DNA of 29,098 nucleotides from an uncultured Eubacteriales bacterium (GCA_964419825.1 CAYQRS010000001.1:1-29098); one strand, 5' to 3'. Shown: positions 1-18,425, numbered from the stretch's first letter. Translations and numbers: made by a program. Notes: generated by a model not told the origin, from the sequence alone.

Positions 1-550
1 GCTCAATGAGGATAACCCAAACGGGCTTTCTGCCGGGCTGAGTGCCGAAGATATAGGGCAGCTCAAGAACAGAAACATCAAAGCTTTCGTCAGCGTAGGA
101 GAAAGCAAGCTCTTCCTGATCGACACGGCTGCGGATGTAGGGATGCTTTTCTGTGAGCTTCATATCGGGGCGCTCTTTTGCAAGGTATGAGAAGTATGAG
201 CCGAGGATAACGGCGCTCTTCATACCAACTTCCTTACAAAGGGGAAGAATACGCTTGAGGGGAGCGATGTTGAATTTGTAGTAAGCATCGTAAACGGGAG
301 CGGGGAATTCAACACGCTCGTCAACGCCTGCGGCGAAAACGAAGCAATCATAGCCCTGAAGCATAGCCTTGATTTCATCGTCTGATTTATCATAGATGTT
401 GCAAAGCTCAATATCCATCTCCTTGGGGATGGGTGCGCCTTCGGGAAGAGGGGGGAGAGCAACGCTCTTAACCTCATGACCGCGCTCGATAAAAATGCGT
501 GCAGCTTCACAGCCCAAAAGACCGGTGCCGCCAATCATAAATACTTTCAT
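1..550 (-). CDS. NAD(P)-dependent epimerase/dehydratase (extended SDR), truncated by the window edge
   Basis: Absent from the ORF track because it has no stop in the window. Manual translation from ATG at 550 gives MKVFMIGGTGLLG (GxxGxxG Rossmann motif), FAAG, YxxxR-like HPYIRSR and LELPYIFG; the frame stays open to position 1. Confidence 0.85.
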   Translation of the reverse strand, partial: MKVFMIGGTGLLGCEAARIFIERGHEVKSVALPPLPEGAPIPKEMDIELCNIYDKSDDEIKAMLQGYDCFVFAAGVDERVEFPAPVYDAYYKFNIAPLKRILPLCKEVGMKSAVILGSYFSYLAKERPDMKLTEKHPYIRSRVDQEELAFSYADESFDVSVLELPYIFGTQPGRKPVWVILIE

Positions 551-583
551 TTCTTCTGGAAATCCTTTCTCTCTCTCTTTATA

Positions 584-1393
584 TTAGCCTTGTGCGTAAG
601 CACCGACCATCATCATATAATCACCAAGCTGAGCGCCGAATTCGGGTGCGCCGTCCATAATCAGCTTGCCTGCCTTGACCGATTCAATCATATCGTCGGT
701 TTGCATAAGTATGCCAAGTGCGCTGTCAAAATTATCGAAGCGCATTGTGAAGAACGGCATTGCACGCTTGTATTCGCCACGACCTGCTCTTGATTTGCCT
801 GCCTTGATGCGGATGTAAGCGCTGACCTCAGGATGATCGTTAACAGCCCAAGCGTAAACACGGTCGGGGCTTTTTGAGGTCCAGCCGTGAACAGTCTCGT
901 GACCGTTCTTGTTAAGGGTGCTGATGCCGCTTGAAAGCAGGTAAAAATAGCACTTAACAAGGAGCTTTTTCTCATCAGGATCCTTTGGCGGTTCTTTTGC
1001 GCCGAGCAGGTTGGCCATTTTCAAAAGCACCATCAGGAACGAAACGAATGCGCCCGTGTGCTTTGCGATGCCCTTCATTTTCGGCAGATATTGCGGCTTG
1101 ATTTCACCCTTGAAAAAGGCATTGAGAGCTTCGATGCTCTTGAATTCAAGCTCGACGTGTGCGTTGTCGGTCAGTTTATCGGTGTGGATGAGCCATTCGC
1201 CGTTGTTAACAACAAAATGTGTGCCGACCTTGCCCTCCGGAACATCGGGGCAGAGTGCACTGACCTGATAAACTGTGTGTGCGTGCTCGAATTTCTTTTT
1301 AAGGCTCGGAACATCCGTTGCGAGAACCTTTACAAGCGGCAGAGCGGCACAGAGGAAGATTTTATTGGTATAAATATCATCTTTTGTTGACAT
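584..1393 (-). CDS. Hypothetical protein with two SCP2 (sterol carrier protein-2)-like repeats
   Basis: ORF 584..1402; an AAGAGG RBS favours ATG at 1393. C-terminus MRFDNFDSALGILMQTDDMIESVKAGKLIMDG resembles the SCP2 tail; N-half ELEFKSIEALNAFFKGEI repeats the pattern. Domain call is by eye. Confidence 0.6.
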   Translation of the reverse strand: MSTKDDIYTNKIFLCAALPLVKVLATDVPSLKKKFEHAHTVYQVSALCPDVPEGKVGTHFVVNNGEWLIHTDKLTDNAHVELEFKSIEALNAFFKGEIKPQYLPKMKGIAKHTGAFVSFLMVLLKMANLLGAKEPPKDPDEKKLLVKCYFYLLSSGISTLNKNGHETVHGWTSKSPDRVYAWAVNDHPEVSAYIRIKAGKSRAGRGEYKRAMPFFTMRFDNFDSALGILMQTDDMIESVKAGKLIMDGAPEFGAQLGDYMMMVGAYAQG

Positions 1394-1405
1394 TCTATTC
1401 ACCTC

Positions 1406-2416
1406 TTAAACTTCGTCTTCCCAATCATCGTCAAGCTCGAAATCTGCGTTCATTGCTTCACGAACTGCGGCGATGATGCCGTTTGAATCGATGCCGAGGA
1501 TTGACATAATATCCTCATGCAAGCCGATGGGTGCGAATTGGTCATTGATGCCGAGGCGTTTGAATGCACAGCCCTTGCCTGTTTCGGCAATAACCTCGCC
1601 GACAGCCGAGCCAAGACCGCCGAGAATTGTGTGATCCTCAACCGTGATAATGCGGCGAGTTTCCTGAATTGCCTTAACAACAGCCTCACGGTCGAGCGGC
1701 TTGATTGTGTGCATATTGAGAACACGAACCTTTAAGCCGTCTGCATTTTCGAGGAAGTTGGCGGCCTGAAGAGCCTGAAAAGCGCAAGAACCGCAAGCGA
1801 TAACCGTAATATCAGTACCCTCGTGGAGCTGAACTGCCTTGCCGACCTCGAAGCCGTAATCTGTGTTTTCGTAAAGAACACGGTCGAAGCCACGGTTAAT
1901 ACGGATGTAGTAAGGACCCGGGTTCTCATAAGCGGCACGGACAGCGTTAACAGTTTCCATACCGTCTGCGGGACAAATCAGGGTGATGTTCGGCATTGAG
2001 CGAACAACTGCCATATCGCAGATTGCGTGGTGAGTTGAGCCTGCCTGACCGAAGGATGTACCTGAATGGGTTGCAATGATTTTTGCGTTAACATTCTGGT
2101 AGCAAATATCCGTGTGGAGCTGGTCTGCACTGCGCAGAGAAGCGAAAACGGAGAAGGTTGAAAGGAACGGCACAAGACCTGCCTTTGCCATACCTGCGGC
2201 AACGCCGAACATATTCTGCTCTGCAATGCCGACATTGAAGTATCTGTCGGGGAAGTGCTCGCCGAACATACCGATTTTTGTCGATTTGCCGAGGTCTGCG
2301 GTGAGCGCAACAACATCATCGTGCTGTTCGCCAAGCTCAACAAGAGCCTTGCCGTAATATTCCGCCGTTGAAAGAGCGGTTGATTCGGTTGCAGTATAAG
2401 TTAATCCGCCTGCCAT
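1406..2416 (-). CDS. Split transketolase-like enzyme, C-terminal (pyrimidine-binding) subunit
   Basis: 336 aa with ADLGKS, VGIAEQN, THSG..GSTHH, RINRG, HTIKPLD and EDHTILGGLGS motifs. Confidence 0.92.
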   Translation of the reverse strand: MAGGLTYTATESTALSTAEYYGKALVELGEQHDDVVALTADLGKSTKIGMFGEHFPDRYFNVGIAEQNMFGVAAGMAKAGLVPFLSTFSVFASLRSADQLHTDICYQNVNAKIIATHSGTSFGQAGSTHHAICDMAVVRSMPNITLICPADGMETVNAVRAAYENPGPYYIRINRGFDRVLYENTDYGFEVGKAVQLHEGTDITVIACGSCAFQALQAANFLENADGLKVRVLNMHTIKPLDREAVVKAIQETRRIITVEDHTILGGLGSAVGEVIAETGKGCAFKRLGINDQFAPIGLHEDIMSILGIDSNGIIAAVREAMNADFELDDDWEDEV

Positions 2417-2418
2417 AA

Positions 2419-3288
2419 TTATGCGCCCTCCTTTTCTGCTCGTTCGCAGCGTTTTTTGTATGCGGCCTCAAGGCTTGCCTTAGCGAGGTTGTAACGCTCC
2501 TCGTTAAGTGCGCCGTAGTGCCAGTTGTAATCGTTTTCCATAAAGTCGATGCAGCAGCCCTTGACTGTGTTTGCAACAATCATGGTCGGCTTCTCATCGT
2601 GAGCGAGTGCGTAATCAATAGCGTCGCAAAGCTCGCTGATGTTGTTGCCGTCAACCTCGATAACGTGCATACCGAAGGCACGCCATTTGTCGCAGAAGGG
2701 TTCAAGCTTCATAACCTCTTCTGTCGGACCGTCAATCATACATTTGTTGCGGTCAACGAAGCTGATAACGTTACTGATGTTGAAGTGGGCGATTGTCATT
2801 GCGGCTTCCCAGTTAGAGCCTTCGTCACATTCGCCGTCGCCGAGGATGCAGAAGGTTTTGTAATCCTTGCCCTTAAGCTTTGCGGCAAGAGCCATACCTG
2901 CGGCAATGGAAAGACCGTGACCGAGCGAGCCTGTTGAAGCGTCAACGCCGATAACCTTGTTTGAATCAAGATGGATGCCCATCTTTGAGTTAGTGAGGTT
3001 AAAGGTTTTGAGCTGTTCGGGGTCATTGAAGCCGTAATCGACGAGTACGGGCGCATAAGCGATGCCTGCGTGACCCTTACTCATAACGAAACGGTCTCTG
3101 TCCTCCCAGTTGGGGTTGTTTTTGTCAAGGCGCATATATTTGTGGTACAGTACGGTCATCATATCCATAACGCTCATACCGCCGCCGATGTGACCGCTGC
3201 CTGCCCAATATGTAGTGTCGAGGCAGAGGTTACGCAGCTCAAACGCCTTTTTTTCAAGGGCTAACCATTCGTCTTTTTTTAATGGCAT
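2419..3288 (-). CDS. Split transketolase-like enzyme, N-terminal ThDP-binding subunit
   Basis: 289 aa with SGHIGG, DRFVMSKGH, GSLGHG and the ThDP motif GDGECDEG...N; directly upstream of the C-terminal subunit. Confidence 0.93.
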   Translation of the reverse strand: MPLKKDEWLALEKKAFELRNLCLDTTYWAGSGHIGGGMSVMDMMTVLYHKYMRLDKNNPNWEDRDRFVMSKGHAGIAYAPVLVDYGFNDPEQLKTFNLTNSKMGIHLDSNKVIGVDASTGSLGHGLSIAAGMALAAKLKGKDYKTFCILGDGECDEGSNWEAAMTIAHFNISNVISFVDRNKCMIDGPTEEVMKLEPFCDKWRAFGMHVIEVDGNNISELCDAIDYALAHDEKPTMIVANTVKGCCIDFMENDYNWHYGALNEERYNLAKASLEAAYKKRCERAEKEGA

Positions 3289-3329
3289 AATGCTAATCCT
3301 CCAATTTTATTAAATTTTAAAAAATTCAA

Positions 3330-4592
3330 TTAAAACAGTTCGGGGTGATTTGCCGCAACGGTTTTGAATGCTTCGTCAGAAATCTCCAGAGTGAGGTTGA
3401 TATCCTCATCGGTGAGGGCGGCATTGATGAAGTGGTTGTGGTGGCTTGCGAAGAATACGCCTCTCTTAACACATTCGGCAACCCATTCCTGATGGAGCAT
3501 CATTGAGTTGTCGTTTGCGATTCTGAAATAGAACAGCGAGGGCTCGCCCGAAACAACAAGGTCGAAGCCGTTGTTTGCCGCTGTTGCTTTAAGACCGTTT
3601 GTGAGCTTGAGTCCCTTTTCACGGAAGAGGGCGGGTGCGTTGATTTCTTTAAGCTTGTTGATGCAGGTGATGCCTGCGGCAAAGGGAATTGAGCTTAACC
3701 AATAGCTGCCTGTGTAGCTCAGGGAGCTGACTGCGCTCTTGAGCGAGTCCTTACCGCAAAGGCAACTTACATTCCAGCCGTTTGCAATCGCCTTGCAGAA
3801 GCAGATGAGGTCTGCCTCAAAGCCGTAATAATGGTCTGAGCCTGCAAGGTCAAGGCGGAAGCCCGCACGAACGTCGTCAACGATGAGGACGATGCCCTTG
3901 CGTGTGCAAAGCTCACGAACCTTTTGCCAATAGCCGTCGGCAGGAAGCTCATTGTCACGGTAGTTGCCGTGCATATAGGGCGTTGCGATGAATGCGGCAA
4001 CCTCGTTTTCGTTGTCGGAAACCAGCTTTTCGAGTGCTTCAAAATCGTTCCAATCAACATAGAGGTTGTTTTCAACATCCTCAGGGATAACGCCAGGGTA
4101 ATCGAGCTTCTGAGTCCAAGGCGAAACGCCGTGATAGAAGCCGTTTACGAAGATGATTTTTTTGCGGTTGGTTGCTGCACGGGCTGTCATAATTGCACAG
4201 GTTGTAACATCGTTGCCGTTCTTTGCAAAGAATGCCCAATCGGCGCTTGCAACCGTGTCAACCATAAGCTCTGCAAATTCAACCATTACCTTGCCGGGTG
4301 CGGTCGTGCAGTTGCCGAGCTTTGCCTGAGCGGCTGCCGCAGCGTCAACCTCCTTGTCGCAATAGCCGAGAATGTTCGGACCGTATGCGCACATATAGTC
4401 GATAAAGCGGTTGCCGTCAACATCCCAAAAATAAGTGCCCTCTGCTTTTTCGGCGAAGAAGGGCCAAGCCGAAACGGGGATGAAGTTGCCCTCTGCAGGG
4501 CCGAGGTGACCGTAAACACCGGAGGGGATGACTTTTGTCGCACGGTTAAAGTATTCACGGCTCTTTGTGTAATCGTTAATCGGGAAACTCAT
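3330..4592 (-). CDS. Class III PLP aminotransferase, GSA-aminomutase-like but divergent
   Basis: 420 aa; DVDGNRFIDY, YGPNILG, GFYHG, DDVRAGFR and PLP lysine in FCKAIANG. Differs from HemL signatures (NSGTEA, DEVMTGFR, GKIIGGG). Confidence 0.88.
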   Translation of the reverse strand: MSFPINDYTKSREYFNRATKVIPSGVYGHLGPAEGNFIPVSAWPFFAEKAEGTYFWDVDGNRFIDYMCAYGPNILGYCDKEVDAAAAAQAKLGNCTTAPGKVMVEFAELMVDTVASADWAFFAKNGNDVTTCAIMTARAATNRKKIIFVNGFYHGVSPWTQKLDYPGVIPEDVENNLYVDWNDFEALEKLVSDNENEVAAFIATPYMHGNYRDNELPADGYWQKVRELCTRKGIVLIVDDVRAGFRLDLAGSDHYYGFEADLICFCKAIANGWNVSCLCGKDSLKSAVSSLSYTGSYWLSSIPFAAGITCINKLKEINAPALFREKGLKLTNGLKATAANNGFDLVVSGEPSLFYFRIANDNSMMLHQEWVAECVKRGVFFASHHNHFINAALTDEDINLTLEISDEAFKTVAANHPELF

Positions 4593-4608
4593 TTCTATCT
4601 CCTCCTTG

Positions 4609-5385
4609 TTATGCTAAATACAGAGCAACTCTGTCGAGAATTCTGTTGAGGTTGTCGAGCATATTGATCATGCCCTTCATTTCGATCGTGCCTTCGCCGA
4701 TGCAGGCGAGGGAGTTAATCTTGCCGTCGAAAAGCTGCCTTGCCAGGTCGAGATTGTCGAACTGCATGATAGCTCTCGGATTTTCACAGCGCTGTTTAAC
4801 GGTGAGAAGCTTATGGTCCTTAACACGGATCGTTGCGGCAACATCGTCCTTGATGCCGAAGCTGATTTCGCCGTCGGGAATGAGGTGCGCCGAGAAAGTG
4901 CCCTTGAAATCGTTGTTGCCGATTTGTGAAAGTGCAACTGAGATTACATAGAACATCAGCCTTGTGCTTGTTTCGAAAAATTCTCTGTCCTCAAGTGCTT
5001 CGGGTGAGGGACGGAGCATCTCATTGAGTCTGTCGGTCAGCTTAACGAATTGCTTGAGCAGGAAGCCGATATGGCGGAAGCCCTTGGTCGGAATCGGGGT
5101 GGTTGTGCCCTCGATAAGACCGTTGAATTTTTCGCAGCTGCTGAACGGAAGCTTAACGTCGCAATCGAAACAGCCCTGCTCCATGCGGCAACGGCCGTTC
5201 TTGAAATAAAGCGTAGCTTTCGGACCGTCTGCAACATCGAAGCCGATTGAGATGGGCTTTGTGTTGGAAATCAGCGCCGAAGCAACGGTATCTATTTCAC
5301 AAAGGTTTTCAAGCGTGCCGAGGATAGCGTACATATTTATGTAGGCTAAGGTTTTTGAATCCGTCAAAGTGATTTTGTCTGTCAA
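4609..5385 (-). CDS. Hypothetical protein with two SCP2-like repeats
   Basis: 258 aa; TTG start 8 nt after AAGGAGG (5400-5394). C-terminus MQFDNLDLARQLFDGKINSLACIGEGTIEMKG is SCP2-like; the N-half repeats it (VKLPFSSCEKFNGLIEG). Confidence 0.6.
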   Translation of the reverse strand: MTDKITLTDSKTLAYINMYAILGTLENLCEIDTVASALISNTKPISIGFDVADGPKATLYFKNGRCRMEQGCFDCDVKLPFSSCEKFNGLIEGTTTPIPTKGFRHIGFLLKQFVKLTDRLNEMLRPSPEALEDREFFETSTRLMFYVISVALSQIGNNDFKGTFSAHLIPDGEISFGIKDDVAATIRVKDHKLLTVKQRCENPRAIMQFDNLDLARQLFDGKINSLACIGEGTIEMKGMINMLDNLNRILDRVALYLA

Positions 5386-5425
5386 AACGCATTCCTCCTT
5401 GTTATACTTATAATATATTAGTTTT

Positions 5426-5455
5426 ATTTTAACCTTAAAAGCATAGGTTTGTCAA
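5426..5455 (-). promoter_or_regulatory. sigma70/sigmaA promoter of the aminotransferase-transketolase operon
   Basis: Minus strand TTGACA (5455-5450), N18, TAAAAT (5431-5426), upstream of the RBS at 5400-5394. Confidence 0.7.
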
Positions 5456-5509: not shown

Positions 5510-5538
5510 AAAAAGCACCTGCTTTGCGGCAGGTGCTT
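5510..5538 (-). terminator. Intrinsic terminator of the metallophosphoesterase gene
   Basis: 10-bp stem AAGCACCTGC/GCAGGTGCTT, 6-nt loop, U-tract on the minus strand, 17 nt after the stop at 5555. Confidence 0.85.
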
Positions 5539-5554
5539 CAAAGCGCTGTTAATC

Positions 5555-7141
5555 TCAGCCAAAGAGTGAACCGTTCAAAAGGCGGAAGATGAAGTTAACG
5601 ATTTTTGCAATCCAAGCGGCGACATAAGCGAGGCTGTTGACCTCTTCGCCGTAGCCCGGGATTGAGCCTTTAATATCTTCGATGCCGTCATCGTCGCAGA
5701 GGAAAGCTTCGATAATGGGTTGAATGAGCTTGTTCATAATGTCGCCGTCTGCATCGACGATTTTTGCGACAATATCGCTTTCCGTTGCGCAAGCGTATTC
5801 GATTGCGGCATAGGCAATCTTAGCCTCGGTTGTGTCTTTGTTGTAGATTCTGTTGCCGATGGTGTAATCGTTGAAAATTTGGCAGATGATTTCCCAAACA
5901 TTGTTGTATTTGCTGTCGGGGATTTTGATGCCTTTTTCTGCGGCAAGCTTTTGAAGTCCGTCATCGCCGTAAAGCGGAATGTCGAATGTGTTTTTGAGTG
6001 CGGTGCAGAGCTTGTCAACCGTTGAATAAAGGGGACTGTCCTCAGCAATATCAAGGCTTGCGGGGGCGATTGAAGCTCTAACGGTTGCAAGTGTGAGCGC
6101 ATCGTACCTCTGCTTTGCATAGGCTTGGAAATCGGTTGACATTGCGTTCAGCTCATCTGCTGAGTAGCCTGCTGTAACTGCGCCGAGCGCCTGACCGTCG
6201 ATTGTTTTAACGCAGTCAACATCGTAGCTGATTGTTTTATCGGTGAGGGTGAAGCGGCGGTACTGCGAGGGATAGCTGTTGAGTGCAGGTGAGCAGAAAT
6301 CGTAAATCGTGTTGCCGGAGGGGCTTGTGAGGGCGGCGACATCGCCTGTGTGGGTGTGACCCGTGAAAACAAGCTTAATGCCCATATCGGCAAACATCGA
6401 GGCGTATGTACGGGGGAGATCGACGATGTATTTGTCGTCTGTCAAGCGCTGGAGCGGCTTGTGCTCAAGGAGATTGTGGTGCATCATAAGTATCGGCTTT
6501 TTGCCCATCGCCTTGATCTCCTTGGCGGCGTTTTTCAGCCAGCTCAAGCGTGCCGAATCAACGCCGTTTGCAAGCATATACTGTTCGTCACAGCTATCGA
6601 GTGCGATGAGTGCATATTCATCGTTAAGCTCAACTGCGTATGAGCAACAGCTTGAATCAACGCTGAAAGCCTTATCGTAGCCGAATTCGTTGTAAATCTC
6701 GGCAAATTCGGTATGGCTGACAACTGCCTGCGGGTTGGAGGAGTTATCGTGGTTGCCGTTGATAACATAGACCTGCTTGCCTGTTTCCTGCTCAAACTTG
6801 CGGAATTTTGCGGCAACTGTTTCGTGGTCGGCACGGTAATCACGACCGTAGGTCGCAAGGTCACCGGGTACGAGGATGAAATCAATGCTGTCGTCTGCGG
6901 CGCATTGCTTGAGGAAAGCGTCAATGATGAAGCCGCTTTCGTGCTGCATTGTGTGACCGCTTTTGTTGGTGTTGAATGCCGTGACCGATTCAACATAATC
7001 GCTGCGGTTGGGCATCGGGTGAACATAGTGAATATCCGTTGCAACGGCAAAGCCGCAAGCGCCGTTATCGGCAACGGCGGCAACGCTCACAGCCGAAAAG
7101 ACGAACACAACGGCCAAAAGCACGCTGATGATTTTTTTCAT
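5555..7141 (-). CDS. Secreted calcineurin-like metallophosphoesterase
   Basis: 528 aa; signal peptide MKKIISVLLAVV...AVAD; metal motifs TDIH, GDL, GNHD, MHH and GHTH in canonical order. Confidence 0.88.
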   Translation of the reverse strand: MKKIISVLLAVVFVFSAVSVAAVADNGACGFAVATDIHYVHPMPNRSDYVESVTAFNTNKSGHTMQHESGFIIDAFLKQCAADDSIDFILVPGDLATYGRDYRADHETVAAKFRKFEQETGKQVYVINGNHDNSSNPQAVVSHTEFAEIYNEFGYDKAFSVDSSCCSYAVELNDEYALIALDSCDEQYMLANGVDSARLSWLKNAAKEIKAMGKKPILMMHHNLLEHKPLQRLTDDKYIVDLPRTYASMFADMGIKLVFTGHTHTGDVAALTSPSGNTIYDFCSPALNSYPSQYRRFTLTDKTISYDVDCVKTIDGQALGAVTAGYSADELNAMSTDFQAYAKQRYDALTLATVRASIAPASLDIAEDSPLYSTVDKLCTALKNTFDIPLYGDDGLQKLAAEKGIKIPDSKYNNVWEIICQIFNDYTIGNRIYNKDTTEAKIAYAAIEYACATESDIVAKIVDADGDIMNKLIQPIIEAFLCDDDGIEDIKGSIPGYGEEVNSLAYVAAWIAKIVNFIFRLLNGSLFG

Positions 7142-9397: not shown

Positions 9398-11791
9398 TTA
9401 TTTCTTCTTTTTCTTTGCCGCTTTGAGGGCTTCAAGCTGTTCCTTTTCGGCTAATTTTTGCTTTGCCTGCTCATCGACCGCAGCTCTGTCGGCTTCCTCA
9501 GCCTGAGCCTTTGCGTGGTCGTAAAGGGCAAAAATTTCATCGAGATTGCTGTAGCTTTCTGCCTGAGCAATCAGCTTGACTGCGTTCAAATAAGGCTTTG
9601 CGGCACGGTTGAAGCGTGCGTGCTTATCCATTTCTGCCTTTGCATTTGCCTGAGCCGCTTTCTTTTCCTGCTGAGTGCGGCGGATTCTGATAATCAGCTC
9701 ACGCTTGGCATCGGCTTCGGTTTCGGCGTGCTTTTGCAGGTATAGCTTGCGGAGCTTTTCATCACATTCATCTTCCTCGGCAAAGCAGCCTTCCAGAGCC
9801 GCAAAATCGGGCTGAACAAAGCTTTCGGGGGTGGGGTAGTACTTCTTGATTGCCTTAATTGCCTCTTTCTTGCCGTGGGCAATTTCAATGGCAAAATGCC
9901 TGTATTCTCTTTCTGCCTCGGTTGCTTTCGGGAGCTTTCTTGCTTTAGCAAGCTCGGCGTTGATTTCGTCTGCATCAAGGTAATAAAGAGCCGCCAAGCC
10001 GCCCGAAACAAGCGCACGGCTTGCCTTTAGCTGGGATTGATAGAGCGGAGCGGAGAATTTATCAAGCTCTTGGCAAACAAGCTTTGAAATTTCGATTTCT
10101 TCGTTGAATTCAACAGCCTCTTTGTGGGCTTTTTTCGCAGCCTTACGCTCCTCCTTGTCCTTGATGGAGCGGTAGCTTCTGTCAACAGCCTTAGGCTCAA
10201 GGGCGGCTGTTTGCTTTGCGTGGTTGATGGTGTCGATGCCCTCAACCAAGCCACGGTTGTTGGTTATGCCGTTGTTGTGGTCCTCAAACATTGCACGGAT
10301 TTTCAGCACCCGAACGATGCTTCGCTGCTTGCGCTCGGTCAAATCGTAGAAGAAGTACGGAATGAGGTTGAGCGCCGCACCGATAGCGCCCATAAGCACG
10401 AGTGCTGTCAGAATCTTATATAAAAGTCCGGGCTCGCCTGTGTTTATGTCGAGAATATCGTAGGGGTTTTTGTAGCCGTTGTTTTCGTGTATGCCATATG
10501 ATTTGTAAACGAACGGCAGAACGCCCGAGGTGAAAAGCGTAACAATGTTGCCAATCGTCTGCACCGTTGCAAACATACCGTCAACACGCTCGCCCGTTTT
10601 GTATTGGTGGTAATCCCTGATGTCTGCTTGAATGGCAGGGGTTGTGATATGCTCGAAGGCGGTGAACAGCCAGTTCATATAAATGCAAATTGCAACCCAC
10701 CAAATGCTTTTGATGTTGATGAGCATTGCAAGAATACAGACGATGTTCATTGTGTTAACGCCGACAAGCGTTTTCTTTTTGCCGATTGCCTTGATGCAAA
10801 ACGGCGCAATAATCATGCCCCAAAGTGAGGCGTTGCTGACAACGGTGCGGATTATTCCGAGCGTGCCGCCCTCGCAAGCGTGACCGTAGGAGAACAGCCA
10901 ATCAAGAGCCGTTCCGTAAACGCCCTCAAGGAAGCCGAGCCAGCCTGCAAGGGCAATTATCCAAAAATACTTGTTCCTTGCAACCGCCTTGAAGGAGTCG
11001 ATGAAGCTGACCTGAATGATGTGGGTTTTTGCCTGCACGATTTTTTCCTTCGTGTTGGCGAAAACGATAACGGTCAGAGCCATGCCGATAATTGCGAAAA
11101 CAGGGTAGGAATAGCGATAAACTCGAATATCGTAAAGGTTGTTATCCGCAACAAGCTGTGCGATGATTGGCATAATCAGGCTGTAAATCGAGGGCGCAAG
11201 AGAATATACAACCGCTTTGATTGATAAAACATCGGTTCTCTCCTGCGTGTCGGGCGAAAGAACATGAACAAGGTTTGTGTAAGCATCGTTGAAGAAGTTG
11301 TAAAAGAACTGCAGCAGCAGGTTGAAAACGAGGATGACCGCACACATTGCGACATATCCGCCTGCTTTGCCGAAAATCGGCGAGGGGAAAATATCGTAAA
11401 GCTTATCGTAGGGGAACCAAACATAGAGAATGGAGATTATCGCCGTCGGCACGCCCATTGAAATGAGGAACGGGCGGTATTTGCCTGCCTTGTTGCGGCT
11501 GTTGTCAATCATCGTTGAACGCACCGCTGTGAGCGGAATGTTTGCCAAGGTCGAGATTATGTAAAGCACATACATATCCGTTGGCGAAACGCCGATTACG
11601 TTGCCGACGATTGCGTTGGTTGTGTTGACGATCAGGTTCATACCGAGCGTAATGATGAAATATGCGCCGATACCACCGCCTGCGTATGAGGCAATCTCCT
11701 TAAAAGTCATATATCGGCCCGGCGGCGGCATTTTCCAATAAGCCTTAACCTTGCCGAGAGTTTGTTCGATTTTGTTTCCCACGGTCAACAT
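9398..11791 (-). CDS. GPH/MelB-like MFS transporter with a long charged C-terminal extension
   Basis: 797 aa; about 12 TM segments in the first ~480 aa with DNSRNKAGKYRPF and ADIRDY..YKTGER.DG GPH motifs; the remaining ~310 aa are hydrophilic and K/E/A-rich. Confidence 0.85.
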   Translation of the reverse strand: MLTVGNKIEQTLGKVKAYWKMPPPGRYMTFKEIASYAGGGIGAYFIITLGMNLIVNTTNAIVGNVIGVSPTDMYVLYIISTLANIPLTAVRSTMIDNSRNKAGKYRPFLISMGVPTAIISILYVWFPYDKLYDIFPSPIFGKAGGYVAMCAVILVFNLLLQFFYNFFNDAYTNLVHVLSPDTQERTDVLSIKAVVYSLAPSIYSLIMPIIAQLVADNNLYDIRVYRYSYPVFAIIGMALTVIVFANTKEKIVQAKTHIIQVSFIDSFKAVARNKYFWIIALAGWLGFLEGVYGTALDWLFSYGHACEGGTLGIIRTVVSNASLWGMIIAPFCIKAIGKKKTLVGVNTMNIVCILAMLINIKSIWWVAICIYMNWLFTAFEHITTPAIQADIRDYHQYKTGERVDGMFATVQTIGNIVTLFTSGVLPFVYKSYGIHENNGYKNPYDILDINTGEPGLLYKILTALVLMGAIGAALNLIPYFFYDLTERKQRSIVRVLKIRAMFEDHNNGITNNRGLVEGIDTINHAKQTAALEPKAVDRSYRSIKDKEERKAAKKAHKEAVEFNEEIEISKLVCQELDKFSAPLYQSQLKASRALVSGGLAALYYLDADEINAELAKARKLPKATEAEREYRHFAIEIAHGKKEAIKAIKKYYPTPESFVQPDFAALEGCFAEEDECDEKLRKLYLQKHAETEADAKRELIIRIRRTQQEKKAAQANAKAEMDKHARFNRAAKPYLNAVKLIAQAESYSNLDEIFALYDHAKAQAEEADRAAVDEQAKQKLAEKEQLEALKAAKKKKK

Positions 11792-12023: not shown

Positions 12024-12587
12024 ATGTCAAATTTGGTTTTAGCCTCAGCCTCGCCACGCCGCAAGGAGCTTTTGTCGCTTGCAGGCTTCGATTTTGAGGT
12101 GATCGTTTCCAATGTTGAGGAGCTTATCGATTGGACTCTCAGCGCCGAAAAAATTGTCGAATCCCTTGCCGAGCAAAAGGCAAAGGCTGTTTCAAAGCAA
12201 AATCCTGCAAAAACTGTCATCGGCGCAGATACGGTCGTTGTGCTTGACGGCAAAATTCTCGGCAAGCCGAAAAGCAGAGAACAGGCAAAGCAGATGCTTG
12301 CCTCGCTTTCGGGCAGGAAGCATTGCGTTTATACAGGCGTTGCCGTCTGCGTTGGCGGCGAAACGGTCAAGTGCTTCAGCGAGCGCACGGCGGTTGAATT
12401 CTGGACACTCAGCGAGGAGGAAATCGATGCCTATGTCGCAACGGGCGAATGTGACGATAAGGCAGGCGCTTACGGTATTCAAGGCAAGGGCTGTACCCTC
12501 GTCAAGGGCATCGAGGGCGATTACTTCAACGTTGTTGGCTTCCCCGTTTCACGCTTCTGCCGTGAAATTGGTGAAATTGCTTATTGA
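12024..12587 (+). CDS. maf: Maf-family nucleoside triphosphate pyrophosphatase (dTTP/UTP type)
   Basis: 187 aa; LASASPRRKELL, IGADTVV, LGKP and DKAGAYGIQG. Confidence 0.95.
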   Translation: MSNLVLASASPRRKELLSLAGFDFEVIVSNVEELIDWTLSAEKIVESLAEQKAKAVSKQNPAKTVIGADTVVVLDGKILGKPKSREQAKQMLASLSGRKHCVYTGVAVCVGGETVKCFSERTAVEFWTLSEEEIDAYVATGECDDKAGAYGIQGKGCTLVKGIEGDYFNVVGFPVSRFCREIGEIAY

Positions 12588-12612
12588 CATTGATGTAAAT
12601 AATTATTATAAT
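12584..12612 (+). promoter_or_regulatory. Perfect consensus sigma70 promoter of the fur-znuA-znuC operon
   Basis: TTGACA (12584-12589, overlapping the maf stop), N17, TATAAT (12607-12612). Confidence 0.85.
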
Positions 12613-12617
12613 AAACT

Positions 12618-12654
12618 CTGCAAATTGAAATTGAGTTTCAGTTTCAATTTGCAG
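12618..12654. promoter_or_regulatory. Inverted repeat at the transcription start; probable Fur/Zur operator
   Basis: CTGCAAATTGAAA-N11-TTTCAATTTGCAG (perfect 13-bp arms) built from AAATTG and GTTTCA hexamer repeats, directly upstream of a Fur-family gene. Confidence 0.65.
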
Positions 12655-12678
12655 TTTTTTGTTTTTGAGGGTAATTTT

Positions 12679-13077
12679 ATGTCGAAATACAGCACAAAGC
12701 AGGGCGAGGCGCTCCTGCGATTTTTTGAGCAGAATTCAGACCGCCATTTCACTGCGGCGGAGCTTGAAGCAGGCTTGGCGAGCAGCGGCGCAAAGCTCGG
12801 CAAGGCAACGGTTTACCGCCATTTGGATAGCCTTGTTGAGCAGGGCAGAGTTCGCCGCTTCGTCAGCGATGACGGCAAAATCGCTTGCTACCAATTCTGC
12901 GGCGAGGGCTGTAAGGAGCATTATCACCTGAAATGCGGCAAATGCGGCGAGCTGATTCATGTTGAATGTGAACAGCTTGATGAAATGTGCCGCCATATAA
13001 TAGCTCACCACGGCTTTGAGGTGGAAAAAGAAAAAATAACCTTATGCGGAGTATGTGAAAAATGCAGAAATTCATAA
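12679..13077 (+). CDS. Fur-family metalloregulator (Zur-like by context)
   Basis: True start ATG 12679 after a GAGG RBS (the ORF track over-extends to 12112); 132 aa with H.TAAE, ATVYRHL, HYHLKCGKCG and C-terminal CEKC. Confidence 0.9.
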   Translation: MSKYSTKQGEALLRFFEQNSDRHFTAAELEAGLASSGAKLGKATVYRHLDSLVEQGRVRRFVSDDGKIACYQFCGEGCKEHYHLKCGKCGELIHVECEQLDEMCRHIIAHHGFEVEKEKITLCGVCEKCRNS

Positions 13078-13988
13078 AAATCATTGCGCTTTTTCTGTGC
13101 CTTGCCTGTGTGTTCGGGCTTGCGGCCTGCGGCGGCACGGAGGAGCAGGAGCAGAACGAATTGAATATTGTTTGCACGCTTTTCCCTTATTACGATTTTG
13201 CAAGGCAGATTGCGGCGGATAAGGCTGAGGTAACCCTCCTGCTCACGCCCGGAACGGACAGCCACAGCTATGATCCGAGCCCTGTTGATATGGTGAAAAT
13301 CAAGGAATGTGATTTGTTCATTTACACGGGCGATATTATGGAAAGCTGGGCAAGGAATGTTATCGGCGGCGTTGAAACGCTCGATGTGAGCGAGAACATC
13401 AAGCTTTCAGCCGTTCACCACGGCGAGCACGAGGTCGATACCGAGGAGCATAGCCATTCGGCTGACCCCCATATTTGGACCTCGCCTGTCAATGCCGTTG
13501 TAATCGTCGAAGCGATTGCGGCAAGGCTTGCCGCAATTGACCAAGAGAATGAGCAGACCTATTCCGACAACGCAAGGAAGCTGACAGAAAAGCTCAACTC
13601 GCTCGATGCCGAAATCCGTCAGACTGTTTCGGCGGCGAAGAACAAAACGATTGTGATGTGCGACCGCTTCGCTCTGCACTATTTCTGCGAGGAATACGGG
13701 CTTGATTATATTGCCGCCTTCGATTCCTGCACCAGCGAAACCGAGCCAAGCCCTGCGGTTATTGTCGAAATAACAAAGGCAGTTCAAGAGAATAAAATCC
13801 CCGCTGTTTTTTGTGCGGAGCTTTCCAATCGCAAGGTTGCGCTGGCAGTCGCAAAGCAGACGGGTGCAGAGGTTTTGGAGCTTCATTCGTGCCATAATCT
13901 TTCCGCTGAGGATTTTTCCGCAGGCGAAACCTATATCAGCCTTATGGAGCGCAACCTCAAAAATTTGAAAACAGCTTTGGGTGCATAA
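13062..13988 (+). CDS. znuA: Zn/Mn ABC transporter substrate-binding lipoprotein
   Basis: Lipobox LAAC; SHSYDP, His-rich loop HHGEHEVDTEEHSHS and DPHIWTSP. Confidence 0.9.
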   Translation: MQKFIKIIALFLCLACVFGLAACGGTEEQEQNELNIVCTLFPYYDFARQIAADKAEVTLLLTPGTDSHSYDPSPVDMVKIKECDLFIYTGDIMESWARNVIGGVETLDVSENIKLSAVHHGEHEVDTEEHSHSADPHIWTSPVNAVVIVEAIAARLAAIDQENEQTYSDNARKLTEKLNSLDAEIRQTVSAAKNKTIVMCDRFALHYFCEEYGLDYIAAFDSCTSETEPSPAVIVEITKAVQENKIPAVFCAELSNRKVALAVAKQTGAEVLELHSCHNLSAEDFSAGETYISLMERNLKNLKTALGA

Positions 13989-13989
13989 T

Positions 13990-14685
13990 ATGAATATAAT
14001 CGAAGTTAAAAATTTAACAATGAGCTATGAGCGTGTTCAGGTTTTGGAGAACATATCCTTTTCGCTCGGCAAGGGTGAATGGCTGAGCATTGTCGGCGAA
14101 AACGGCAGTGGCAAAACTACCCTGCTCAAAGGCATTGCAGGGCTGCTGCCGCTCAAATCGGGCAGCGTTGATTTCGGCGAAATCAGCCGCAAAAATATTG
14201 GCTATCTGCCGCAACAAACGGCAATACAGCGTGATTTTCCTGCTTGCGTGCATGAGGTTGTGGAATCGGGCTGTACGGGCAACGCAAGGCTTTTCGGCTT
14301 GCGCAGTGCCGCCGATAAAAAGCGTGCGAGCGATGCAATCAAGGAGCTTGGCATTGAGGGAATACATCACCGCCCTTATTGCGATTTGTCGGGCGGTCAG
14401 CAGCAGCGTGTTCTGCTCGCAAGGGCGCTTTGCGCAACGGAAAAGCTGCTTTTGCTCGATGAGCCCGTTACAGGTCTTGATCCAATCGTTTCGGCGGAAA
14501 TGTATGAATCGATTGCCTCCCTCAACAAAAAGCGAGGGGTTGCGATAATTATGGTCAGCCACGATATTGCAGGCGCAGTTAAATATTCCGACAAGATTTT
14601 GCACATCGGCAACGGTGTTGAGTTTTTCGGCTCGACAGAGGAATATCTCAAAAGCGATTTGGGCAAACGCTTTGCTTCAAAATGA
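13990..14685 (+). CDS. znuC: Metal ABC transporter ATP-binding protein
   Basis: GENGSGKT, YLPQ, LSGGQQQR, LLLDEP and VSHD; ATG 13990 preferred (the track starts at GTG 13981). Confidence 0.9.
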   Translation: MNIIEVKNLTMSYERVQVLENISFSLGKGEWLSIVGENGSGKTTLLKGIAGLLPLKSGSVDFGEISRKNIGYLPQQTAIQRDFPACVHEVVESGCTGNARLFGLRSAADKKRASDAIKELGIEGIHHRPYCDLSGGQQQRVLLARALCATEKLLLLDEPVTGLDPIVSAEMYESIASLNKKRGVAIIMVSHDIAGAVKYSDKILHIGNGVEFFGSTEEYLKSDLGKRFASK

Positions 14686-14782: not shown

Positions 14783-16579
14783 TCAGCCTGTGAAGCCTCT
14801 GTAGCCCAAGGTCTTGTTAAGGGCGGTGTTGATGCCCTTGAGGATTTTGCCGAGCACTTCGTTGCTCGAATCGTCCTTCGGAGCTTCTCTCAAGCCGAGT
14901 GCAACAAGTGCATCGGTGAGCTTTGCCTCGGCGGCTTCGTATTCGCCTGCAACAACAACCGTTGAAGCGAGCATTTTGTCGCAAGCTTCGATTGCTGAAT
15001 TGAGCATTTCACGCTCTGAGTCGGTGAGCGTTGTTTGGTCGATCGCCTTGGCATCCTTAAGCATACCCTTAATCAGCTTTTTGGTTTCTCTGCCAATGTT
15101 GAACTGTGGGAAATTCGGGTTTGAATAAACATCAGTCATTGCTTTGTCGGTCAGCAGAGCTGTCGATAATTTCATAATGACATCGTTTCTGCCCGTGCCC
15201 TCATGATCCTGACCGTAGAAGAAGAATGTCTGGTCGGGGAGGAGGCAGGTTGAAGCGTCAACCTCTCTGTCGGGCGAGATGTGGTTATGAGTGGGATCGG
15301 AGCAGTTGCTTGTGCCGAGCTTGTTTTTGTTCTTTTGAACATAGCTTTCGGGGTACTGCTCGCCGACAAGGCAGCTTTCAAGTCCCATACCTGTCGATTC
15401 GATTTGAATGATGCCGTCTGCATTGCAGGAGCTGAAGCTCGGAACAAGGCAGTAGAGCGGATAGCTGTAATCGACAACGTCAAAGACCTCAACGCCCATA
15501 TCCTTCATCTTTTGGATGTTTTTAAGGCTGTTGACCTGAGCCTCGTGATAGCGCAGAATTTGAGCCTGAACCTCGGTTTGAAGCTCGCTTGGGAACCATT
15601 TTGCGTATGCCTCGTCAAAATCCTCGCTCGGAACTAATGCCCACATATTTGTGCAGTTAACAAGCACATCGCCGACAAGCGAATTAACAATGCTGTCGAG
15701 GAATGAGCGGATAACCTTGCTGGGGAAAATGCGGATAAGTATGTTGATGAGGTTGCCTGTAACCTCGTCATCACAGAGGGTGGGGAAAAGGTAATCGTAA
15801 AGCATCTTATCCGAGGTGCTGAGCTTGCCTTTGAAAATATCGCCTACGATTTTACTGCCGTTGAGCGCAGGAACAATGTAGATAACTCTGTCAAGGCTCT
15901 GCATAACATCGGGATAATAATCAACCAAGCCGTTGGCGATTGTGCCGCCGAGGCTGATTGGGGTGAGGTTTACCTTATCGTGACCTGTTTCCTTTTTAAC
16001 CTGCTCGATGAATTCGTAAAGCTCTGCGCAGATTTCCGCATTGTTGCCGAACGAATTGTAAGCGAAGTAATAGAGGTGATCCTCGCCTGCGATTTGAGCG
16101 TAATCCTGCAGGGGAACATTGTCATAGATTTCCTCTTTTTCCTCTGCGGTGCAAAGTGCAACGCTCTGCGGATAACGCTTTGTGACGATGTTGTAGTTGT
16201 TCTTGCCGTTGTGGTCGAAGCTGTTCCATTTGAAAAGCTCCGCAACAACATCCTCTGCCGCATCGCAAAGTCCCATATCACGCTGGAAGAGCAGTGAGCT
16301 GAGGAGCGGAAGAACAAGCTTTTTGATTGCGTAATCGGTGTCCGTGTAAATCGGCCAGCCTGTAATCGGCTTGCCGTCAGCATCGTAGACCTGATTGCCG
16401 TTTTCATCTGCAAGGTAGGTTTGCGATTGGCCGATGCCGTGTACAACGATTGTCGGGGAATAATCGCAGCTGCCGCCGCAGGAGGTGAGAACACCTGTGC
16501 CTGCCGCACCCACGGTAGCGGGCACGGCAAGTGCGAGGACAAGCATAATTGAAATTACTTTAAAAAAGCGTTTTTTCAT
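14783..16579 (-). CDS. Secreted alpha/beta-hydrolase (lipase/acyltransferase-like)
   Basis: 598 aa; signal peptide; oxyanion VHGIG, nucleophile elbow PISLGG, ADGII (Asp) and QDHEG (His). Confidence 0.75.
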   Translation of the reverse strand: MKKRFFKVISIMLVLALAVPATVGAAGTGVLTSCGGSCDYSPTIVVHGIGQSQTYLADENGNQVYDADGKPITGWPIYTDTDYAIKKLVLPLLSSLLFQRDMGLCDAAEDVVAELFKWNSFDHNGKNNYNIVTKRYPQSVALCTAEEKEEIYDNVPLQDYAQIAGEDHLYYFAYNSFGNNAEICAELYEFIEQVKKETGHDKVNLTPISLGGTIANGLVDYYPDVMQSLDRVIYIVPALNGSKIVGDIFKGKLSTSDKMLYDYLFPTLCDDEVTGNLINILIRIFPSKVIRSFLDSIVNSLVGDVLVNCTNMWALVPSEDFDEAYAKWFPSELQTEVQAQILRYHEAQVNSLKNIQKMKDMGVEVFDVVDYSYPLYCLVPSFSSCNADGIIQIESTGMGLESCLVGEQYPESYVQKNKNKLGTSNCSDPTHNHISPDREVDASTCLLPDQTFFFYGQDHEGTGRNDVIMKLSTALLTDKAMTDVYSNPNFPQFNIGRETKKLIKGMLKDAKAIDQTTLTDSEREMLNSAIEACDKMLASTVVVAGEYEAAEAKLTDALVALGLREAPKDDSSNEVLGKILKGINTALNKTLGYRGFTG

Positions 16580-16592
16580 AATTCACAGCTCC

Positions 16593-18425
16593 TTAGAAAA
16601 GGTCTGAGAAGCCTTTAGGACCAACGAGCTTATACATAAGGTCGCTGAGGGTTTTAGCAAAGCCGGGATCCTGCTCCTTAGTAAGGCTGTCGATGTGAGA
16701 ATAGTTCATATAGCCTGCATCAGCAAGTGCGTTGTTGAGGCGGATTGTAACTCTGTTGACCTCAGCCGAATTGCCGATTGTTGCTGCCATAAGTGTTTCT
16801 GCCTCTGCAAGAGCAGCCTTGATTTCAGCTCTCTGAGCGTCGGTCATAACGAAGGATTCATCGGCAAGGCAAGCCTTTGCATCGTTCATATACCAGCGGC
16901 GGAGCTTTTTGTTGTTTGTGCCGTAGTTGAACTGAGGATATTTTTCGGGAGCTGAATCGATGTCCTTGATTTCGTTTTTGCAAAGAAGCTCAAGAACAAG
17001 GTTCATAGCAGGTGCTGTGTTGGCAGCATCCTCGTGGTGCATATCCTTGAAGAACCAAGTGTTGTTGGGGAGTGCGCAGGTGCTTGCATCGATATCAGCA
17101 TCGGGGCTGATGTATCTGTCGCCTGCGGTTACGCCGCTGAGCTTCTCACCGGGGAGAGCGGCTGTACAACCGATTGAGGTTGATTCGATGTTGATGATAG
17201 CATCGGAGTTGACCTTGTTTGTGCTGCCGATAACCTTGAAGAAAGCGTACTGAATGTCGCCTGTGTGGAGGTTGTAGCCGCAGATGTTGTTGACCTCACA
17301 GCCGTTATCCATCATATATTTGATGTTGCTTTCGAGGTTGATTCTTGCGGATTGGAACGCATCGAGCTTTTCACGCAGAACGGGGTATTTGTATGAGGGA
17401 ATTACCTTGTCGATGATTTCGGCATAGGTTTCCTTGCTGCACATTGCCCAAAGCTGGGGAACCTTTGTGAGCATATTGTTGTAAAGCACATCGTAAGCGG
17501 CAGTGAGAGTGCCCTCAAGCACGCTTCTGGGGAAAATGCGGATAAGTACGTTGATAAGGTAGCCGAGAGTCAATTCACCCTCGCCGCCGAGAATTTCGGG
17601 GAAGAGGTTTTTGTAGATATCCTCATCGCCGAGGCTCCAGCTACGCTTGTAGAAATCGTCAATAACATTTGTGCCGTTGAGAACAGCAACAACGTTAACG
17701 GCTCTTGAAACATCGTTCTTTTCCTTGAAAAGCTCGGTGTAAGCGGTGAAGAGTGTACCGCCGAGACTGACGGAGAGCAGGTTGACTTGATCCTTGCCTG
17801 TTTCTTTCTTAACCTTCTGGATGTATTCGTCAAGCTCTCTTGCTGATTCCATCGGGTCGCCTGCAAGGTTGAAGGTGAAGAAGAAAACATTTTCAGCGCC
17901 GATTTCGGCAACGAGGGGCTGAATCGGAACCATACGGCAGAACCACTCATACTGAGCCTCGTCAACAGCCTTAACAGTGCCATCTAAGGTTGAGCCTGCC
18001 ATTGAGCCGTAGCGGTAAACCTCGATGTTGTGGTAGGTGTTACCCTCATCGTCGGCTGACTGGTATTTGAAAGCTTCCTCGGCAATTTTTGTAACTGCCT
18101 TTGTCCAGCCCACATCGGATTGAAGTCCGAGTGTGAGCAGGAGGGGAAGAAGTGCGTATTTGATTGCAACGGGGATAAGTGCATCTGTGTCGAGAATAAT
18201 TGTCTGACTTTCGATTTTGTGACCCTTTGAGTTGAGGATCGGGTTGCCGTCTTCATCGGCAACATAAGCGAGTGAATGGTTGATACCCGGGAGAATGATA
18301 ACAGGATTGCTGCTTGTATCGCCGGATGTGGTTGAGCTGTCTGCGGTTACGCCGACCACGGCAACACCGCAAAGCAGGGCAACTGCAAGCACAACCGAAA
18401 TTATGCGTTTAACGGTTTTGTTCAT
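16593..18425 (-). CDS. Secreted alpha/beta-hydrolase, paralog of the adjacent gene
   Basis: 610 aa; signal peptide; LPGIN, SVSLGG, SDAII and MHHED; shares GNLINILIRIFP/GYLINVLIRIFP and DASTC.LP blocks with 14783..16579. Confidence 0.75.
   Translation of the reverse strand: MNKTVKRIISVVLAVALLCGVAVVGVTADSSTTSGDTSSNPVIILPGINHSLAYVADEDGNPILNSKGHKIESQTIILDTDALIPVAIKYALLPLLLTLGLQSDVGWTKAVTKIAEEAFKYQSADDEGNTYHNIEVYRYGSMAGSTLDGTVKAVDEAQYEWFCRMVPIQPLVAEIGAENVFFFTFNLAGDPMESARELDEYIQKVKKETGKDQVNLLSVSLGGTLFTAYTELFKEKNDVSRAVNVVAVLNGTNVIDDFYKRSWSLGDEDIYKNLFPEILGGEGELTLGYLINVLIRIFPRSVLEGTLTAAYDVLYNNMLTKVPQLWAMCSKETYAEIIDKVIPSYKYPVLREKLDAFQSARINLESNIKYMMDNGCEVNNICGYNLHTGDIQYAFFKVIGSTNKVNSDAIINIESTSIGCTAALPGEKLSGVTAGDRYISPDADIDASTCALPNNTWFFKDMHHEDAANTAPAMNLVLELLCKNEIKDIDSAPEKYPQFNYGTNNKKLRRWYMNDAKACLADESFVMTDAQRAEIKAALAEAETLMAATIGNSAEVNRVTIRLNNALADAGYMNYSHIDSLTKEQDPGFAKTLSDLMYKLVGPKGFSDLF

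Follow-up and report, generated by a model that had tools for sequence, protein, structure and literature searches.

The DNA analyzed here, referred to in the following as the window, is one entire contig of 29,098 bases (GCA_964419825.1, CAYQRS010000001.1:1–29098) from the 1.75 Mb genome of an uncultured Eubacteriales bacterium, which comprises 304 contigs. At its left end, the minus strand carries a head-to-tail series of six open reading frames (ORFs) separated by intergenic gaps of 16, 41, 2, 3 and 33 nt. In the direction of transcription, the first is SCPa (4609–5385, minus strand; 258 amino acids), a cytoplasmic protein with two domains resembling sterol carrier protein 2 (SCP2) and the constant upstream partner of the next gene product, a class III, pyridoxal phosphate (PLP)-dependent aminotransferase of the FumI type (3330–4592, minus strand; 420 amino acids; Pfam Aminotran_3, PF00202, 3.2e-37). 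These are followed by the two subunits of a split transketolase: TK-N, the N-terminal subunit that binds thiamine diphosphate (ThDP) and metal (2419–3288, minus strand; 289 amino acids; Pfam Transketolase_N, 2e-48), and TK-C, the pyrimidine-binding subunit (1406–2416, minus strand; 336 amino acids; Transket_pyr, 3e-41, and Transketolase_C, 1e-26). SCPb, a two-domain paralogue of SCPa that is always found downstream of the transketolase, comes next (584–1402, minus strand; 272 amino acids), and the contig ends within an extended short-chain dehydrogenase/reductase (SDR) of the NAD-dependent epimerase/dehydratase family, of which the N-terminal 183 residues are present (2–550, minus strand, open at the contig end; Pfam Epimerase, 1e-6). 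An earlier note on this DNA, made from the sequence alone, had listed the genes in this order on the minus strand under a promoter of their own, and this was confirmed by the ORFs, the Pfam and NCBIfam matches and the promoter match described below.

A promoter-like site (TTGACA-18-TAAAAT; 5455..5426, minus strand), recognized by consensus match only, with 11 of 12 positions matching, sits between SCPa and the strong intrinsic terminator of an upstream metallophosphoesterase gene (5539..5512, minus strand), which has an 11-bp stem with six GC pairs and a T-run and forms the 5′ boundary of the operon. The sequence AAGGAGG is located 7 nt ahead of the TTG start codon of SCPa. A second in-frame TTG occurs six codons into the ORF (start region 5367–5385, minus strand), and because homologues align from this later codon, the start of SCPa is uncertain by six residues. 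At the other end, the earlier note had the operon continuing off the window. Reading the genes to the left showed that it goes no further than the SDR: the remaining 146 SDR residues were found on contig C89 of the same genome (L192, 4–444), followed by a terminator with a 12-bp stem (468–495) and then by convergent genes only. The operon thus consists of six genes and ends there. The full-length SDR, seen in a related locus (L004), has 339 residues; the gene 3′ of it is on the opposite strand in 7 of the 10 closest relatives, and a small same-strand ORF follows it in the other 3. The SDR occurs only in these approximately 10 closest relatives and is absent from the conserved five-gene unit described below, and is therefore a lineage-specific add-on, the sixth and last gene.

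When the aminotransferase was compared with proteins of solved structure in the PDB, the best match was the aminopentol aminotransferase FumI (6HBS; 303 bits, E 2.7e-89, residues 9–414), while HemL structures reached no more than 154 bits. Identity to FumI was approximately 45%, counted over the first 100 aligned columns, and Lys267 (codon at 3792–3794, minus strand) aligned with the catalytic lysine of FumI. The HemL models in NCBIfam all fell below their cut-offs (NF000818, 227 against 398; TIGR00713, 208 against 527; NF004856, 200 against 486). Judged by these alignments, the enzyme is FumI-like, not HemL, although automatic annotation may mislabel it, because the top curated NCBIfam match is a HemL model, below its cut-off. 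FumI moves the C2 amino group of hydrolyzed fumonisin B1, a C20 2-amino-3-ol and sphinganine analogue, to pyruvate, leaving a 2-ketone (PMC3136697). The enzyme comes from the fum catabolic cluster of Sphingopyxis sp. MTA144 and has the same class III fold and catalytic lysine as the operon enzyme, but it is a stand-alone enzyme of an aerobic alphaproteobacterium, and its substrate is a 1-deoxy (methyl) compound; for FumI, we came across neither an SCP2 partner nor a transketolase. The fum cluster may also include an acetolactate-synthase-like ThDP enzyme, which the open papers do not list and to which we give no weight. The proposal that the class III aminotransferase would suit long-chain amino alcohols was strengthened by this kinship, as the closest solved enzyme deaminates a long-chain 2-amino-3-ol.

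Both transketolase subunits matched the two-subunit enzyme of Carboxydothermus hydrogenoformans, ChTK (6YAJ/6YAK; EC 2.2.1.1), with 253 bits for TK-N and 274 bits for TK-C. In TK-N, the GDGE...N motif (residue 150 onward) and the equivalents of His26, His66, His100 and His261 were invariant in 69 sequences. In TK-C, the cofactor-activating glutamate was kept (residue 66, in IAEQN), and the His129–His130 pair, which covers the H473 equivalent, was invariant in 65 gut relatives. Since the donor-side histidines, the metal motif and the cofactor glutamate are all kept, the transketolase looks active and ketol-specific. Of the phosphate-binding set Arg358, Ser385, His461 and Arg520, the equivalents of the last three were always kept as well. 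These three residues, the two-subunit build, the ThDP/metal motif, the glutamate and the donor histidines are shared with ChTK.

The operon enzyme differs from ChTK and from canonical transketolases in its gene setting, next to SCP2 carriers and an aminotransferase of the lipid type, and in two places in its own sequence. Alignment of TK-C to 6YAJ and to human transketolase placed Gln124–Ala125 (2042–2047, minus strand) at the position of Glu468–Asp469 in E. coli numbering, and Ala18 (2363–2365, minus strand) at the position of Arg358. The Gln-Ala pair was invariant in 65 gut relatives, all with alanine at the Asp469 position, which was alanine or glycine in 33 of 35 environmental cassettes, none of which had Glu-Asp. 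The Arg358 position was occupied by alanine or serine in the gut relatives; the arginine was kept in 11 of the 35 environmental cassettes, and its loss is therefore lineage-specific. A second split transketolase in the same genome, on contig C3, has the canonical Glu-Asp and is 42–46% identical to the operon enzyme, and the genome also encodes DXS. Asp469 hydrogen-bonds a sugar hydroxyl and selects the stereoisomer, and is routinely engineered when new acceptors are sought (PMC11387542). Wild-type split transketolases take non-hydroxylated aliphatic aldehydes such as propanal and pentanal while staying (S)-selective, and a natural split transketolase with the equivalent of D469L prefers aromatic acceptors (PMC13663882). 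By alignment, then, the acceptor pocket of the operon enzyme is remodelled, and the Asp-to-Ala change would be expected to widen it. This is in line with the reading in the earlier note: the residue that binds the 2-hydroxyl of sugar acceptors is replaced, and Glu-Asp occurs in no cassette examined.

The two carriers were less obvious from domain searches. The Pfam SCP2 model scored 20.9 bits on SCPa, just under its cut-off of 21.3, and did not match SCPb. An exhaustive search recovered 500 cluster representatives related to SCPa, and among the 84 full-length ones that were aligned, 44 matched Pfam SCP2, the best at 4.5e-11. An AlphaFold model of SCPa, built from the 84-sequence alignment, had a pLDDT of 96.4, and its residues 135–256 superposed on SCP2 structures with Z scores up to 12.4; all significant Foldseek matches (E ≤ 0.001) were to SCP2 carriers, UbiJ or the alkyl-binding domain of alkylsulfatase. 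The profile of the N-terminal half of SCPa aligned with that of the C-terminal half by hhalign (E 2.1e-15), and the two halves of SCPb aligned with the corresponding halves of SCPa (8.4e-15 and 1.9e-13). The full proteins were also similar to each other (5e-8 by BLASTP; 1.9e-15 for the SCPa profile on SCPb). Given the fold match, the half-to-half alignments and this mutual similarity, SCPa and SCPb are tandem SCP2 proteins and diverged paralogues; the SCP2-like assignment made from the sequence could thus be placed on firmer ground, with an AlphaFold model and Z scores for SCPa and profile alignments for both proteins. UbiJ (6H6O), the C-terminal domain of the alkylsulfatase SdsA1 (2CFU) and the SCP-2L domain of MFE-2 (1IKT) share the fold with SCPa (Z 8–12), and these SCP2 domains hold hydrophobic substrates or intermediates for soluble enzymes. 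The operon carriers, for which lipid carriage is predicted, differ in that the SCP2 domain is duplicated within one 26–30 kDa protein and that it comes as a pair of diverged paralogues, SCPa next to the aminotransferase and SCPb next to the transketolase.

At least 585 relatives of the aminotransferase were present in the genome collection. We examined the best 80, which are gut loci, together with 80 environmental metagenome loci found through an alignment of the aminotransferase. In the gut loci, SCPa, the aminotransferase, TK-N, TK-C and SCPb were collinear wherever the contig allowed. SCPa was upstream of the aminotransferase at 74 of the 80 gut loci, counted by ORF clusters, and at 71 of the 80 environmental loci, where the transketolase directly followed the aminotransferase in 55 of 72 informative cases. 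The same five genes surrounded SCPa homologues of only about 30% identity, and a distant five-gene locus had a TonB-dependent receptor and an OEP gene as neighbors, which suggests a Gram-negative host. The check on whether the cluster is conserved thus showed the SCP2-like genes to be kept with the enzymes in gut and environmental loci alike. Hosts include gut Clostridia and environmental anaerobes, and the cassette was present in 41 of 201 sampled genomes of the host's family (36 of 185 genera); in a sample of the phylum, 7 of 401 genomes had it. This patchy distribution fits an accessory catabolic or detoxifying module. The cassette is real, strongly conserved and uncharacterized, with a proposed function that is plausible, and our literature searches found no paper describing the cassette or the pathway proposed for it.

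The carrier–aminotransferase pair is the tightest sub-module. It has other company at L101 (G499:C1), L103, L083 and L111–L113: in one Bacillota genome, the pair is found beside genes for an amino acid permease, AraC, GH1, an SDR and GH2, a second pair is accompanied by a FabK-like enoyl reductase, and a third has a 7TMR-DISM sensor inserted between the two genes.

From the protein families and residues observed, we infer a class of substrate, a direction, roles for the carriers and a fate for the two-carbon unit that would make the operon a cytoplasmic route for degrading, and so detoxifying, long-chain vicinal amino alcohols. We give this reading a probability of about 45%. Sphingoid bases, 1-deoxysphingoid bases and aminopolyols of the fumonisin and AAL type are candidate substrates. 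SCPa would extract the lipid from the membrane and hand it to the FumI-like aminotransferase, which would transfer the C2 amino group to a keto acid and leave a 2-keto-3-hydroxy lipid, an alpha-hydroxyketone. The split transketolase would take this ketol as its donor and cut the C2–C3 bond, freeing a fatty aldehyde while the two-carbon head stays on ThDP; the acceptor of the head would then be an aldose phosphate, and the enzyme keeps three of its four phosphate ligands. SCPb would handle the hydrophobic product, and the aldehyde would be reduced by the SDR in the source lineage and oxidized by a class-3 aldehyde dehydrogenase elsewhere. In its most specific form, the route would be the first degradation of sphingoid bases independent of the kinase and of sphingosine-1-phosphate (S1P) lyase, in which one tandem-SCP2 carrier would serve a dedicated lipid transaminase and the other a lipid-specific transketolase, to yield a fatty aldehyde and a C2 ketol that enters sugar-phosphate metabolism. 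That form is possible, but we regard it as doubtful.

Compared with the route of sphingosine kinase, S1P lyase and ALDH3A2, the proposed outcome would be the same, a cut between C2 and C3 that gives a fatty aldehyde to be oxidized by a class-3 aldehyde dehydrogenase. The steps would differ, however: the amino group would come off first by transamination, cleavage would depend on ThDP, and the C2 product would be a ketol unit and not phosphoethanolamine. Pfam and NCBIfam searches, limited to the six operon genes, found no sphingosine kinase or PLP-dependent S1P lyase family among them.

Evidence on direction came from the genes that accompany the cassette in other lineages. The commonest immediate neighbor was a TetR regulator (8 of 74 environmental loci), which also flanks the cassette in L084–86, L087 and L105/L106. 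A 170-residue glyoxalase/VOC protein was next (4 of 74); it lies directly after SCPb, on the same strand, in L123 (14102–14614) and three other environmental loci, and to see it as a ketol epimerase or isomerase would be speculation. An aldehyde dehydrogenase adjoins the cassette in L087 and L081. PDB matches place the L087 enzyme in class 3 (367 bits to human fatty aldehyde dehydrogenase, 4QGK), and the best NCBIfam model for both enzymes is the benzaldehyde dehydrogenase MdlD, below its cut-off.

In six environmental loci without the transketolase, a convergent gene beside SCPa and the aminotransferase encodes a fused ThDP enzyme of 850–890 residues (L131, 8565–11237, minus strand; L133, L135, L139, L145 and L146), made up of E1_dh, Transket_pyr and Transketolase_C and thus of the E1 alpha-beta type. 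A fused enzyme of this type is also found two genes from a FumI-like aminotransferase on a Shinella plasmid, and on a Novosphingobium plasmid the surroundings of a FumI-like aminotransferase include a class II aldolase, a sugar-type kinase, TetR, an aldehyde dehydrogenase, a P450, a TonB receptor and a GDSL lipase. Thirteen gut loci (e.g., L022, 3768–7754) have an opposite-strand block of four genes upstream of the cassette, for TetR, a 405-residue double class II aldolase of the fuculose-phosphate type, another class III aminotransferase (about 25% identical) and a metallophosphoesterase of small size; the aldolase block may represent an alternative, kinase/aldolase cleavage of the keto product. 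A repeated pattern in these loci is the combination of an aminotransferase with a subsequent enzyme that cuts beside the new ketone, and because of this pattern and the TetR-type repressors in other lineages, catabolism is favored, if weakly.

No further conserved gene was found in the 80 gut and 80 environmental loci, whose flanks are heterogeneous and include genes for an amidohydrolase, GH5, PfkB, DNA polymerase IV, LuxS and a PapA-like acyltransferase; TetR and the glyoxalase/VOC protein were the only neighbors to recur. The flanks were also inspected for an ordinary sugar pathway, and the neighbors defined none in either set. Searches of the source genome for Aldedh and NAD_binding_4 returned weak or generic matches only and were uninformative on direction.

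A number of observations weigh against degradation of long-chain amino alcohols. Since the transketolase and transaminase reactions are both reversible, gene anatomy alone cannot fix the direction. The sequencing runs found to contain the stretch were of DNA, and a search for RNA runs with the aminotransferase gene listed none. TetR is present at a minority of loci only, and no regulator, transporter or lipid hydrolase is demonstrably linked to the operon in the source genome. The link to an aldehyde dehydrogenase is thin, resting on two loci, and a tblastn search found no such enzyme in the 80 environmental loci. With Arg358 retained in 11 of the 35 environmental cassettes and Ser385, His461 and Arg520 kept, alignment also makes a phosphorylated partner or substrate possible. 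The stereochemistry is a further difficulty. Canonical transketolases, split ones included, use or make 3S compounds (PMC13663882). D-erythro sphinganine and sphingosine (2S,3R) would, by our own stereochemical reasoning, give a 3R ketol, opposite to the 3S donors. Fumonisin-type bases are 2S,3S and, by the same reasoning, would fit at C3 but lack the C1 hydroxyl that is normally bound by the retained histidines. The mismatch would imply an altered stereopreference, a threo or otherwise unusual base, or an epimerizing step. Overall, the deamination-then-cleavage of sphingoid bases suggested in the earlier note is partly supported: the kinship to FumI, the altered transketolase, the conserved tandem SCP2 proteins and the lack of sugar-pathway flanks stood, while an operon running off the window did not.

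The best surviving alternative, which we still consider unlikely, is that the same enzymes work in the reverse, biosynthetic direction. The transketolase would transfer a C2 ketol unit from a ketose phosphate onto a fatty aldehyde bound to an SCP2 carrier, and amination at C2 would give a sphingoid-like 2-amino-1,3-diol without serine palmitoyltransferase. The reversibility of both reactions allows this, cascades of transketolase and transaminase yield aminodiols in biocatalysis, and the phosphate ligands that remain would be appropriate if the donor were a ketose phosphate; however, the cassette has no conserved neighbor that is a reductase forming fatty aldehydes, an N-acyltransferase or a head-group enzyme. 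Similarly, the operon promoter is strong and constitutive-looking and comes with no regulator, as might suit biosynthesis, but the recurring neighbors elsewhere are TetR repressors and a hydrolytic class-3 aldehyde dehydrogenase, the closest characterized aminotransferase is catabolic, and the distribution is sparse and patchy. A natural precedent exists in the AniP/AniQ/AniN triad of anisomycin (transketolase, aminotransferase and SDR), where a transketolase-type enzyme and an aminotransferase likewise act on either side of an alpha-hydroxyketone (PMC11387542). That triad is biosynthetic, acts on aromatic keto acid substrates and has no SCP2 proteins, and AniP has lost the His-rich motif, has an aromatic pocket and carries Trp at the Asp469 position (PMC11387542), whereas the operon transketolase keeps the motif and has Ala there. 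Also consistent with biosynthesis, the gut species Flavonifractor plautii is reported to make phytosphingosine, and searching that paper by terms brought up no biosynthetic gene (PMC11914097).

Less likely again is a substrate outside the sphingoid class, in which the same deaminate-then-cleave logic would be applied to another hydrophobic vicinal amino alcohol or amine, such as an aromatic amino alcohol of the phenylpropanolamine type, an amino-hopanoid or steroid side chain, or capnine, a sulfonolipid base. SCP2 folds accept a wide variety of hydrophobic ligands, but a pair of dedicated tandem carriers points to a substrate that is very insoluble in water and resides in the membrane, and not to a small aromatic one. 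An aromatic compound would suit the best score of the linked aldehyde dehydrogenase on the MdlD model (424 bits, below cut-off) and the preference of the split transketolase with the D469L equivalent for aromatic acceptors (PMC13663882), yet no aromatic-ring catabolic genes were seen around the cassette. The presence of the cassette on environmental metagenome contigs as well may speak for such a substrate, although the aminotransferase has only one characterized relative, whose substrate is an aliphatic C20 chain (PMC3136697).

We regard a soluble amino-polyol or amino sugar as improbable. Here, a 2-amino-2-deoxy-alditol or serinol-type compound would be converted to a ketose for the transketolase, and the SCP2-like proteins would have a non-lipid role. 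Sugars are the normal substrates of transketolase and three phosphate ligands are retained, but the sugar-hydroxyl-binding aspartate is replaced across the cassettes, and two tandem SCP2 proteins are linked to them throughout. Sugar-related genes do occur near some aminotransferases, namely the class II aldolases and sugar kinases that adjoin FumI-like enzymes on proteobacterial plasmids and the GH1, GH2 and amino acid permease genes beside the SCPa–aminotransferase pair of one Bacillota genome, whereas none of the genes conserved with the cassette encodes a sugar transporter, kinase or isomerase. Finally, we rejected as very improbable a housekeeping arrangement of HemL (heme/corrinoid) and a pentose-phosphate transketolase beside two unrelated small proteins: although the top-ranked automatic models are HemL in the case of the aminotransferase and transketolase in that of the two subunits, the HemL scores are far under their cut-offs, FumI scores twice HemL in the PDB, the genome holds another split transketolase with canonical residues, and the cassette is absent from about 80% of the family genomes, unlike housekeeping genes.

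Sphingoid bases are antimicrobial and signaling lipids in the gut, and, to our knowledge, little has been learned about the ways in which bacteria get rid of them. In the literature, we found one bacterial sphingosine system that has been studied, the sphingosine-responsive operon sphBCD of Pseudomonas aeruginosa, by which toxic sphingoid bases are removed (PMC11398299). Its proteins, a periplasmic oxidoreductase, a cytochrome c and a PLP aldolase, have no family in common with the operon, and no product of the system is known (PMC11398299). If degradation of long-chain amino alcohols is correct, the operon would place beside the universal kinase/lyase route a new catabolic logic, in which transamination precedes ThDP-dependent cleavage between C2 and C3. 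It would also represent a natural transketolase subfamily tuned to fatty aldehydes or lipids, of interest for biocatalysis, and would provide a function for the widespread tandem-SCP2 family, for which we found none described. For anaerobic gut Clostridia, the route would offer both carbon and protection from the antimicrobial long-chain bases of host, diet and Bacteroidota, and in livestock guts it would be a candidate means of detoxifying sphinganine-analogue mycotoxins anaerobically. The cassette merits an enzymology project.

Upstream of the operon in the window is the metallophosphoesterase gene mentioned above (5555–7141, minus strand; 528 amino acids), whose only PDB sequence match was Listeria Lmo2642 (2XMO, E 9.5e-27). 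An assignment as acid sphingomyelinase was rejected, as those structures gave no match. Related phosphoesterases are found near the cassette in some relatives, at varying positions. A six-frame search of the genome with Pfam Ceramidase_alk gave nothing above the cut-off, and by these comparisons a lipid-foraging context of ceramidase or sphingomyelinase around the operon is unsupported.

Further along the window, an ORF considered as a ceramidase candidate (18446–20395, minus strand) had no match in Pfam or by sequence in the PDB. Of the two large ORFs that neighbor it (14783–16579 and 16593–18425), one had only a weak alpha/beta-hydrolase match and the other none. An ORF of 797 amino acids (9398–11791, minus strand) matches an MFS_2 (GPH-type) transporter up to approximately residue 486, followed by about 310 residues with no Pfam match. 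The region 12112–14685 (plus strand) encodes a probable zinc-uptake unit, with a FUR-family regulator, a ZnuA binding protein and an ABC ATPase. The start of the regulator ORF may be called too early, because the FUR domain spans only residues 194–311 of its 321 amino acids.

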